Shown here: piece by piece, positions 22,906-24,738 of the stretch
Layout of the letters: each line of letters opens with the position of its first letter
How positions within the stretch are numbered: position 1 is the stretch's first letter
NCBI GenBank assembly: GCA_018969485.1
Contig: JAGWYG010000007.1
Coordinates: forward strand, 2,419 to 66,418
Direction: 5' to 3'
Source: Chloroflexota bacterium
Lineage (GTDB): Bacteria > Chloroflexota > Chloroflexia > Chloroflexales > Roseiflexaceae
DNA length: 64,000 bases
The notes under the pieces: generated by a model
What the model was told of the DNA's origin: nothing
Seen by the model: the letters and a program-made list of their open reading frames with translations, nothing else
The model's database searches: none
Translations under genes and position numbers: made by a program

Positions 22906-23107
22906 GAGCGCCATGGTGCGCGCGTGCCGGCATCGCTGCGGACGGGGTGCGCGTGCATGAACGCCGTCAGCGGCGCCGAGCCGGTGTCTGCCGCCGGCTC
23001 ACCGGGGTGCACCTGCCCGGCCTTCGCCGTGTGGCTCGCGCACCCATCCGCCCACAGGCCGCTGGGGTGCACCTGCCCGGCCCCGTCGTGCAGCCCTGGC
23101 GCCCTGC

Positions 23108-23136
23108 TTGACACGACCGGGAGATGCGGGTATAGT
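23108..23136 (+). promoter_or_regulatory. Sigma-70-type promoter: TTGACA - 17 nt - TATAGT
   Basis: TTGACA lies at 23108-23113 and TATAGT at 23131-23136, with an exact 17-nt spacer. It is about 25 nt upstream of the leader ORF. Confidence 0.55.
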
Positions 23137-23162
23137 GCCGCTGTGTGCAGTTGAGGAACGCG

Positions 23163-23249
23163 ATGCGCCAGCCGTCCGGCACCACGACGACGATTGCGAC
23201 TACGACCACCCCGATCACTCGCATCGGGGTGCAGTTGCGCGACGGCTAG
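23163..23249 (+). CDS. Thr/Ile-rich leader peptide (28 aa) of the ask-asd operon
   Basis: GAGGAA lies 4 nt upstream of ATG 23163. The peptide is MRQPSGTTTTIATTTTPITRIGVQLRDG*, with 9 Thr and 3 Ile in 28 codons. A U-tract hairpin follows it. Confidence 0.55.
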   Translation: MRQPSGTTTTIATTTTPITRIGVQLRDG

Positions 23250-23275
23250 ATCGATCCCGGTCTCACGCGTGACAG

Positions 23276-23308
23276 CGCCCCCCTCGTCGAGAGGTCGGGC
23301 GTTTTTTT
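23276..23308 (+). terminator. Intrinsic terminator / attenuator hairpin with U7 tract
   Basis: CGCCCCCCTC-gtcga-GAGGTCGGGCG followed by TTTTTTT. A run of 7 T is conspicuous in this G+C-rich DNA. It lies 41 nt upstream of the ask start. Confidence 0.6.
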
Positions 23309-23349
23309 GTTGATCCGTGTGAGCGCTATGCGCGACAGAAAGGGTGGGT

Positions 23350-24738
23350 ATGTCGCTGCTGGTGATGAAGTTCGGTGGGACGTCGGTCGGCGATGCTGCG
23401 GCGATCCGCGCGTTGGGCGCGATCGTGGCGCAGCACCGCCAGGCATGGGACCAGGTAGCCGTCGTCGTGTCGGCGATGAGCGGGGTCACCGATCTGCTGC
23501 TGCGTGGTGCGCAGACAGCGGCGGCGGGTGATGCCGCGACCTTCGGCCAGATTGCCGCGACGCTGCGCGAGCGTCACCTCGTGGCGCATCGCGAACTGGC
23601 GGGCGACGCCGTCGTCGATCCGGCGATCGAGCGGTTCATCGACGAGTTCACCCTGCTGTGCCGCAGCGTGCTGGTGCTCGGCGAGGTCACGCCGCGCGCG
23701 CTTGATGCCATCGGCGGACTGGGCGAGCGCATGAGCGCGCGGCTGGTGGCCGGCGCGCTGCATGCCGCCGCGATCAGCGCCAGCGCCGTCGACGCCAGCG
23801 AGTGTGTCGTCACCACTGCCGAGTTCGGCGCGGCAGTGCCGATCTACCCGGCGACGCGCGAGCGCATCCGCGCGCGCATCGGGCCGCTGCTCGCCGCCGG
23901 CGTGGTGCCGGTGATCACTGGCTTCATCGGTGCCACCGAGCAGGGCGTCCAGACGACGCTCGGCCGCGGTGGCTCGGATTACAGCGGCGCGATCTTCGGC
24001 GCGGCCCTCGATGCCGACGAAGTGGCGATCTACACCGATGTCGATGGCGTCATGACGACCGATCCGCGGCTGACGCGCGAGGCGCGGATCATTCACACGC
24101 TGTCCTATGCCGAGATGGCCGAACTGGCTTACTTCGGCGCACGGGTGCTGCATCCGCGCACCATCCGCCCGGTGGTCGAGCGTGGCATCCCGCTGCGCAT
24201 CCGCAACACGTTCAACGCCGGGCACCCCGGCACGCTGGTGGTGCGCGATGCCGTCGCCGACGGTCGCGCCGTCAAGGCGGTGACGTCGATCAAGCAGATG
24301 AGCCTGATCACCGTCGCTGGTCGCGGCATGATCGGCGTGCCGGGCGTGGCCGCCCGCACGTTCGGCGCGGTCGCCAGCGTCGGCGCCAATGTGCTGATGA
24401 TCTCGCAGGCGTCCTCCGAGCAGAGCATCTGCTTCATCGTGCCGAGCCCGACGGTCGGCGCAGTCGTGGCGGCGCTCGAGGCCCATCTGCGCCAGGAGCT
24501 CGCCCGGCGCGACATCGAGCGGATCAACCCGCGCGACGACGTGGTGATCGTGACTGCCGTCGGCGCCGGCATGCATGAGACCCCCGGCGTGGCGAGCCTG
24601 GTCTTCGGCGCGCTGGCCGCCGAGCACATCAACGTCATCGCCATCGCACAGGGTTCGTCGGAATGCGCCATCAGCGTGGTCGTGACGGCACACGACGCCG
24701 ATGCTGCCGTGCGCGCCGTCCATCGCCTGACGTGCTGA
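23350..24738 (+). CDS. ask: Aspartate kinase
   Basis: MSLLVMKFGGTSVGD is preceded by AAGGGTGG. Kinase and C-terminal ACT-domain regions are typical (TLGRGGSDYSGA, VSLITVAGRGM). Confidence 0.92.
   Translation: MSLLVMKFGGTSVGDAAAIRALGAIVAQHRQAWDQVAVVVSAMSGVTDLLLRGAQTAAAGDAATFGQIAATLRERHLVAHRELAGDAVVDPAIERFIDEFTLLCRSVLVLGEVTPRALDAIGGLGERMSARLVAGALHAAAISASAVDASECVVTTAEFGAAVPIYPATRERIRARIGPLLAAGVVPVITGFIGATEQGVQTTLGRGGSDYSGAIFGAALDADEVAIYTDVDGVMTTDPRLTREARIIHTLSYAEMAELAYFGARVLHPRTIRPVVERGIPLRIRNTFNAGHPGTLVVRDAVADGRAVKAVTSIKQMSLITVAGRGMIGVPGVAARTFGAVASVGANVLMISQASSEQSICFIVPSPTVGAVVAALEAHLRQELARRDIERINPRDDVVIVTAVGAGMHETPGVASLVFGALAAEHINVIAIAQGSSECAISVVVTAHDADAAVRAVHRLTC

Follow-up and report, generated by a model that had tools for sequence, protein, structure and literature searches.

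Transcription attenuation by leader peptides is a textbook mechanism of bacterial gene regulation. In Escherichia coli, the thrL leader controls an operon whose first product, thrA, has aspartate kinase activity, and control of such a kinase by a leader peptide is therefore not new in itself. Attenuation of this type has reportedly also been found before aspartate-family genes of Thermus, a thermophile outside the Proteobacteria (aspartokinase and lysine gene cluster). In this study, we describe a leader element located directly upstream of the genes for aspartate kinase (ask) and aspartate-semialdehyde dehydrogenase (asd) in a 64-kb stretch of a Roseiflexaceae genome of the phylum Chloroflexota (contig JAGWYG010000007.1; the whole stretch analysed is called the window below), and we regard it as very probable that this element is a ribosome-mediated, i.e. 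leader-peptide-dependent, transcription attenuator of the ask-asd operon.

A survey of Actinobacteria published in 2005 found no thr attenuator (PMC1262725), and according to a survey of 2010, leader-peptide systems were at that time known only in Proteobacteria and Actinobacteria (PMC2965389). No description of thr or ask leaders of Chloroflexi was found in the searchable full-text literature, although an earlier description may exist. The window element shares mechanism and parts with the trp, his, leu, ilv, and phe leaders, the upstream open reading frame (ORF) of Corynebacterium ilvB (PMC10272879), and the attenuators of Actinobacteria (PMC1262725), but differs from them in regulatory codons and target genes. 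It resembles thrL of E. coli and other gamma-proteobacteria (Thr_leader in Rfam, RF00506) in having a short leader ORF in which Thr (and Ile) codons abound and in the alternative 1:2, 2:3, and 3:4 hairpins ending in an intrinsic terminator. The differences comprise the phylum, the targets (a monofunctional ask together with asd in the window, thrC-ask(-asd) in its relatives), and the second enriched codon, which across the Chloroflexota leaders is Met rather than Ile. Homology to thrL in sequence or structure was not detectable: an Rfam scan of positions 20-27 kb at E ≤ 10 gave nothing that overlaps 23100-23350 and only chance matches elsewhere, nor did 12 relatives show a leader-region match at the gathering score. 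The Chloroflexota leader family described below thus matches no Rfam family.

Leader anatomy and alternative RNA folds

The element lies in a spacer of 444 nucleotides (nt) separating co-directional genes, and all of its parts are present in the right order and spacing (Table 1). A sequence-only reading of this DNA had proposed a thrL-style attenuator starting with a consensus promoter (TTGACA-17-TATAGT), a Shine-Dalgarno sequence (GAGGAA), and a 28-codon ORF, and all three were found as described. The promoter, which fits at 11 of 12 positions, is the sole sigma-70-like match within 18-30 kb of the window and probably directs transcription from a start near 23143. The leader ORF contains 9 Thr and 3 Ile codons among its 28 codons and no internal Met codon. 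Eight of the Thr codons form two runs of four, and these runs (Thr7-10 and Thr13-16; 23181-23210) together with Ile11, Ile18, Thr19, and Ile21 are the predicted regulatory codons. When all six frames of the 64 kb were considered, the leader ORF alone reached at least 7 Thr per 10 codons.

Between the leader ORF and ask, the same reading had noted a GC-rich hairpin followed by seven T residues, which ends 41 nt before the ask start codon at 23350. Both hairpin and T tract are present, the stem being imperfect, with 7 + 4 base pairs (bp) around an internal loop. Because of this loop the hairpin was overlooked by a simple terminator scan, and direct folding was used instead, which gave an energy of -17.7 kcal/mol and a z score of -2.96. 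The T tract is as unusual as had been supposed: 64 kb of this DNA contain two runs of seven T against 0.23 expected, and the second copy is located inside an island of low GC content.

Table 1 Features of the leader region and neighbouring genes in the 64-kb window
Feature	Position	Strand	Details
Gene without Pfam match	17344-19752	+	Phase analysis
Major facilitator superfamily (MFS) transporter	19731-21158	-	Phase analysis and Pfam
Cyclophilin (peptidyl-prolyl isomerase, PPIase)	21148-21639	+	Phase analysis and Pfam
Hexapeptide transferase	21646-22242	+	Phase analysis and Pfam
DUF1405 protein	22243-22905	+	Phase analysis and Pfam
Sigma-70-type promoter	23108-23136	+	TTGACA 23108-23113, 17-nt spacer, TATAGT 23131-23136
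Shine-Dalgarno sequence of leader ORF	23153-23158	+	GAGGAA, read from sequence; same in L161
Leader ORF, 28 codons	23163-23249	+	MRQPSGTTTTIATTTTPITRIGVQLRDG; ATG 23163, TAG 23247-23249
Hairpin P1 (regions 1:2)	23207-23231	+	CACCCCGAU 23207-23215 with AUCGGGGUG 23223-23231
Antiterminator (regions 2:3), three tiers	23226-23281	+	Outer 23226-23232/23275-23281, middle 23234-23241/23266-23273, inner 23248-23253/23258-23263
Intrinsic terminator (regions 3:4)	23274-23308	+	Hairpin 23274-23301, T7 23302-23308
ask (462 aa), a monofunctional aspartate kinase with two ACT domains	23350-24738	+	TIGR00657, 405 bits
asd, aspartate-semialdehyde dehydrogenase, archaeal-type asd_EA	24739-25884	+	NF006416, 431 bits
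Class I aminotransferase	26107-27195		Pfam Aminotran_1_2/Asp_aminotransf; about 220 nt after asd

Upstream of the terminator, two further structures can form. The 5' arm of hairpin P1 (-15.3 kcal/mol, z = -4.35) lies within codons Thr15-Ile18, and its 3' arm overlaps the motif GGGGUGC (23226-23232). The pairing of this motif with GCGCCCC (23275-23281) in the 5' arm of the terminator, which had been put forward as a possible antiterminator, turned out to be the outer helix of a three-tier structure with a full-stem energy of -31.6 kcal/mol (z = -1.95). Its middle helix is formed by GUUGCGCG (23234-23241) and CGCGUGAC (23266-23273) and takes in the palindrome TCACGCGTGA (23263-23272), which had been listed separately and is indeed present, yet represents the 3' strand of this helix and not an element of its own. 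P1, antiterminator, and terminator hairpin share strands and are therefore mutually exclusive in silico.

The comparison of terminator and antiterminator conformers, proposed together with the original reading, was carried out by folding the leader RNA with the ribosome footprint masked, and the fold was found to switch with the position of the ribosome. If Thr13 or Thr16 occupies the A site, the minimum free energy (MFE) structure is the antiterminator, without the terminator (-37.0 kcal/mol for Thr16, where the mRNA is free from 23221), whereas the terminator forms once the A site has reached Thr19, Ile21, or the stop codon. As long as region 1 is available for pairing, P1, the inner helices, and the terminator together (-41.4 kcal/mol) are more favourable than the full antiterminator. 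In silico, the masked folds thus reproduce the classical 1:2/2:3/3:4 logic with the right geometry.

According to the model that we propose, the strong constitutive promoter would start the mRNA and a ribosome would translate the leader behind the transcribing RNA polymerase. With ample Thr-tRNA, and in the genome of the window probably also Ile-tRNA, the ribosome would proceed towards the stop codon at 23247, where it would cover region 2 (23223-23232), unless region 2 is sequestered by P1 (23207-23231); the terminator (23274-23301 plus U7) would then form and a transcript of about 165 nt would be released. When Thr-tRNA is scarce, the ribosome would stall on Thr13-16 and occupy the 5' arm of P1, so that the freed GGGGUGC could pair with GCGCCCC atop the two inner helices, which would already have formed. 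As the 5' arm of the terminator would then be taken by the antiterminator, the polymerase is proposed to read into ask-asd. The site of transcription initiation, translation of the leader ORF, coupling of ribosome and polymerase, and the physiological response to amino acid supply are the parts of this model that we infer.

Leaders of the relatives

The closest matches of the ask product are metagenome proteins with 98% and 81% identity (loci L161 and L162); the next ones, at 70-75%, include proteins named Kouleothrix, Roseiflexus, Roseiflexaceae, or Chloroflexota. The window stems from a member of the class Chloroflexia. L161 has the same upstream genes as the window, and the two sequences cannot be aligned from the stop codon of the DUF1405 gene to the -35 hexamer; similarity starts exactly at this hexamer and they are nearly identical from there to ask. 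Six of the eight differences in the leader ORF fall into codons 9-15, where TTTTIATTTT of the window corresponds to TTMMTATIIT in L161, i.e. Thr is exchanged with Met or Ile. No difference falls into P1 or the terminator, and in the middle antiterminator helix a U-to-C change in L161 turns a U-G into a C-G pair. Between these two sequences, the codon class (Thr/Met/Ile) and the RNA helices have been kept, the peptide sequence not. Thr, Met, and Ile are all products of the aspartate family, and ACN and ATN codons are mutational neighbours.

Scanning 450 nt upstream of ask in relatives with 67-77% identity revealed no leader, and the idea that the leader is not conserved in these relatives was considered. 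L162 provided the reason for the empty scan: its TTGACA-17-TATAGT promoter, leader MGSRRADNMTTTTTSTMTVGVLVRGR, and perfect terminator are followed by a threonine synthase gene (thrC; TIGR00260, 327 bits), which overlaps ask, so that thrC intervenes between leader and ask. The idea was rejected once the leader was found upstream of thrC. A Thr/Met leader with P1 and terminator then turned up before thrC-ask(-asd) in every Roseiflexaceae/Kouleothrix-type locus with enough upstream DNA (L001, L082, L084-86, L088-91, L093, L094, L098, L099, L119, and L162-165), and the same arrangement occurs in Kouleothrix sp. GCA_046328425.1 and Chloroflexia bacterium SDU3-3 GCA_009268125.1. The alignment of upstream regions that had been suggested as a check therefore shows conservation of the small ORF, the Thr-rich run, the following hairpin, and the terminator. 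Altogether, homologous leaders were found in 24 loci besides the window; the TTGACA-17-TATAGT promoter precedes the leader in relatives too, and a homologue of the terminator is present in all of them. A homologous promoter accompanies leader, P1, and terminator in all Roseiflexaceae/Kouleothrix-type loci that include upstream DNA, counted as 17. Most relatives carry the leader before thrC-ask(-asd), its placement directly before ask-asd in the window being the minority form. In L091 (587-655), the leader MRNPGLTTTTTTTTTSMTPSSR ends before the GGGAGGG element described below and is out of frame with its relatives, the RNA elements being intact; either an assembly indel or a natural early-stop variant could account for this.

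In an alignment of 12 sequences, P1, a small stop-codon hairpin, and the terminator are 90% paired, and 7 pairs are changed on both sides. None of 500 shuffles reached this result, and slid controls paired at 43-61%. In the P1-equivalent helix of the relatives, both-side changes occur at 3 of 7 pairs. A covariance model (R1) was built from 14 thrC-type leaders, with the window and L161 left out; the family that it describes includes leaders of Roseiflexus sp., Kouleothrix sp., Chloroflexia bacterium SDU3-3, and many metagenome contigs. It matched the window at 23194-23311 with 32.9 bits (E = 1.4e-6) over positions 1-121 of 121, the sole significant match in 64 kb (next match E = 2.6), and it matched L161 with 29.3 bits.

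The window and L161 share promoter, Thr-rich run, P1, and terminator with the R1 family and differ from it in having no thrC between leader and ask and in their antiterminator. In the thrC-type leaders, GGGAGGG pairs with CCCUCCU of the terminator; at the columns aligned to GGGAGGG the window has CGACGGC, and GGGGUGC of the P1 3' arm with GCGCCCC, plus a long middle helix, is used instead. The antiterminator of the relatives was sought with the 3' arm of the terminator left out, as their MFE at equilibrium, with this arm present, is always the terminator owing to the strength of their terminators. The window holds a divergent member of the thrC-ask leader family, in which thrC has been lost from the operon and a different, longer antiterminator is predicted to be used.

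Outside this family, Thr/Met leaders directly before ask were found in 9 Anaerolineae loci, of about 60 Anaerolineae-like loci, examples being MYSQAAHFTMTMTTTSGTHREAFVHGMK (L005) and MRLTGMTMTTTTTTLRETRGVLVFG (L010). Like the window leader they lie directly upstream of ask and are each followed by an intrinsic terminator of their own, whose 5' arm is complementary to a strand further upstream; the sequences of the helices differ from those of the window (CGUGAGGC with GCCUCACG). R1 gave weak but significant scores of 21-35 bits with five of the Anaerolineae leaders, and either homology or convergence may account for their resemblance to the Chloroflexia family. A scan of genome contigs with very general peptide patterns returned mostly distant phyla and about 13 useful loci. 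The locus L005 (Anaerolineae CFX2) also contains an S-adenosylmethionine (SAM) riboswitch (RF00162, 72 bits; 5695-5891) about 1.3 kb downstream of ask, and Met supply may be sensed twice there, by the Thr/Met leader of ask and by the riboswitch.

The linkage of such ORFs to thrC and ask is strict. The 527 kb of loci hold 22 short ORFs in which Thr, Met, or Ile is encoded by at least 8 codons out of 10, all of them on the gene strand just upstream of thrC or ask, and no such ORF is found on the opposite strand. In 25 leaders (window, L001-L011, L082-L120, and L161-L165), Thr makes up 28% of the residues versus 5.7% in the adjacent genes and internal Met 6.0% versus 2.2%, whereas Ile accounts for 3.6% versus 6.5%. 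ACT makes up 30% of the Thr codons in the leaders and 8% in the adjacent genes, and ACC and ACT together 77% versus 50%, which may reflect tuning of the leaders to one isoacceptor only, tRNA-Thr(GGU).

These data bear on the sequence-only reading of the element as a thrL-style Thr/Ile attenuator: the part concerning Thr is borne out by masked folding and conservation, and the part concerning Ile needs refinement, the codons enriched across the family being those for Thr and Met. The unusual points are confined to these Met codons and to the exchange of Thr, Met, and Ile between close relatives; the spread of such leaders across the phylum and the shift of one leader between thrC-ask-asd and ask-asd are of some interest. 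It is plausible, though somewhat less likely than not, that the Thr and Met codons (in some lineages also Ile codons) of the Chloroflexota leaders act together, phylum-wide, as one multivalent sensor of the aspartate pathway's common trunk (thrC-ask-asd or ask-asd), rapidly retuned by single C-to-T and T-to-C changes at codon position 2. Such single-base exchange between ACN and ATN is the pattern seen between the window and L161.

Objections and alternative explanations

Several observations weigh against attenuation by a stalled ribosome. The MFE of the whole leader is no better than that of shuffled sequences (z = -0.67), and the unmasked equilibrium fold of 159 nt retains the antiterminator in place of P1 plus terminator, so that the argument hangs on the order of co-transcriptional folding and on masking by the ribosome. 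The antiterminator of the window has a modest z score (-1.95), is present in two sequences only, with one improving change on one side and no compensatory pair, and differs from that of the thrC-type relatives; the GGGAGGG:CCCUCCU pairing of the latter is invariant in sequence and therefore gives no covariation support either. A ribosome stalled on the first Thr run (codons 7-10) would probably not extend far enough downstream to cover P1, and a stall there would be expected to favour termination. Ile, finally, is not enriched across the family; the window and a few relatives are the only members with Ile in the regulatory run.

Since the genes upstream point in the same direction as ask and end at 22905, the terminator could also stop read-through from them, and the interval from there to ask contains no further terminator-like site. 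The hairpin with its T tract might be a constitutive terminator or insulator of the upstream PPIase-hexapeptide transferase-DUF1405 operon and the Thr-rich ORF an untranslated chance ORF. We consider this explanation very improbable because a near-consensus promoter and a Shine-Dalgarno sequence with ATG separate the hairpin from the stop codon of the DUF1405 gene, and promoter, leader, and terminator accompany thrC or ask in relatives with quite different upstream genes. Moreover, the Thr/Met run is conserved as a codon class though its nucleotides change, and no comparable short ORF exists on the other strand of the 527 kb of loci.

Alternative terminator and antiterminator folds would equally be expected of regulation that does not involve ribosome stalling, for instance by a riboswitch for a metabolite, a tRNA sensor of the T-box type, or an RNA-binding protein choosing between the two folds, and in Firmicutes ask is under the control of a Lys riboswitch. 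To this explanation we assign a similarly low probability, given that the Rfam searches described above were negative for the leader and the 12 relatives and that, outside the helices, conservation concerns reading frame and codon class rather than a core resembling a ligand pocket. Least likely of all is a functional small peptide with an incidental link to ask: although Thr-rich short peptides can be precursors of peptides that are made on the ribosome and modified after translation (RiPPs) and a trans-acting role is documented for the trpL leader peptide of Sinorhizobium (peTrpL; PMC7298713), no modification or export genes are adjacent, the peptide shows free variation on either side of the Thr/Met run, this run is itself reshuffled between relatives with 98% identity, and the strict linkage to thrC/ask and to the terminator would be left unexplained. 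Attenuation of ask-asd by ribosome stalling in the leader therefore remains the explanation that we favour.

Genomic surroundings and significance

The start codon of asd is probably located at 24772 and not at 24739, as suggested by the gene call of 370 aa in L161 and by the match to NF006416, which begins at residue 34. The aminotransferase gene downstream of asd is also found about 220 nt 3' of asd in L162 (4511-5602) and may belong to the same aspartate-pathway unit. Neither thrC, which was looked for, nor any tRNA gene was found in the window. A minus-strand ORF of 1346 aa (18874-22914) was rejected as the upstream gene on the basis of its codon-position GC contents (0.90/0.59/0.65 compared to 0.72/0.51/0.88 for ask) and the Pfam matches of the plus-strand ORFs, and a plus-strand ORF of 848 aa within 17344-22905 was discarded as a high-GC artefact (GC content of 0.90 at the first codon position).

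Just 5' of the -35 hexamer, in the variable spacer, a direct repeat of 36 nt with a spacing of 60 nt occupies 22987-23082. Its core GGGGTGCACCTGCCCGGCC is exact at 23004-23022 and 23064-23082 and has no further exact copy in the window, where one match with 3 mismatches lies at 42649; a third copy of the repeat (80%) coincides with the P1/antiterminator strand at 23222-23241. The spacer carrying the repeat cannot be aligned with L161, and the repeat may represent a pair of operators, a duplication of local origin, or a chance occurrence. Short tandem repeats are found in the Kouleothrix-type contigs, both in thrC-ask spacers and between terminator and thrC (L163 2356-2500, L164 2180-2470, and L082 and L084 just after the terminator), examples being three copies of GTCAGAATTCAGGA, GAGTGCTGAGTGTT-like runs, three copies of a unit of about 44 nt, and TAGATTG/GGATTTT runs. 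The low-GC island mentioned above (28000-36000), where the GC content drops to 34% compared to about 70% in the flanks, harbours nearly every A/T run found in the window, among them the sole other T7 (33948), and probably represents horizontally acquired DNA.

If the attenuator acts as proposed here, it would give Chloroflexota, a phylum that has received little study, a concrete and testable case of gene regulation, and classical leader-peptide attenuation would be extended to a further deep lineage of bacteria. In these organisms, the kinase and the semialdehyde dehydrogenase, with which the aspartate family begins, would be set transcriptionally by the supply of Thr and Met and not of Lys, which matters for metabolic reconstructions of filamentous Chloroflexota such as Roseiflexus and Kouleothrix in hot-spring mats, soils, and activated sludge. 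The model R1 combined with the short-ORF rule could serve to annotate leaders that are missed by Rfam-based annotation. We know of no earlier case of Met codons serving as regulatory codons in a leader peptide, and the Chloroflexota leaders would, if the proposal is true, be the first one known to us. The turnover of Thr, Met, and Ile codons between near-identical genomes represents a natural experiment on the evolution of attenuator specificity.

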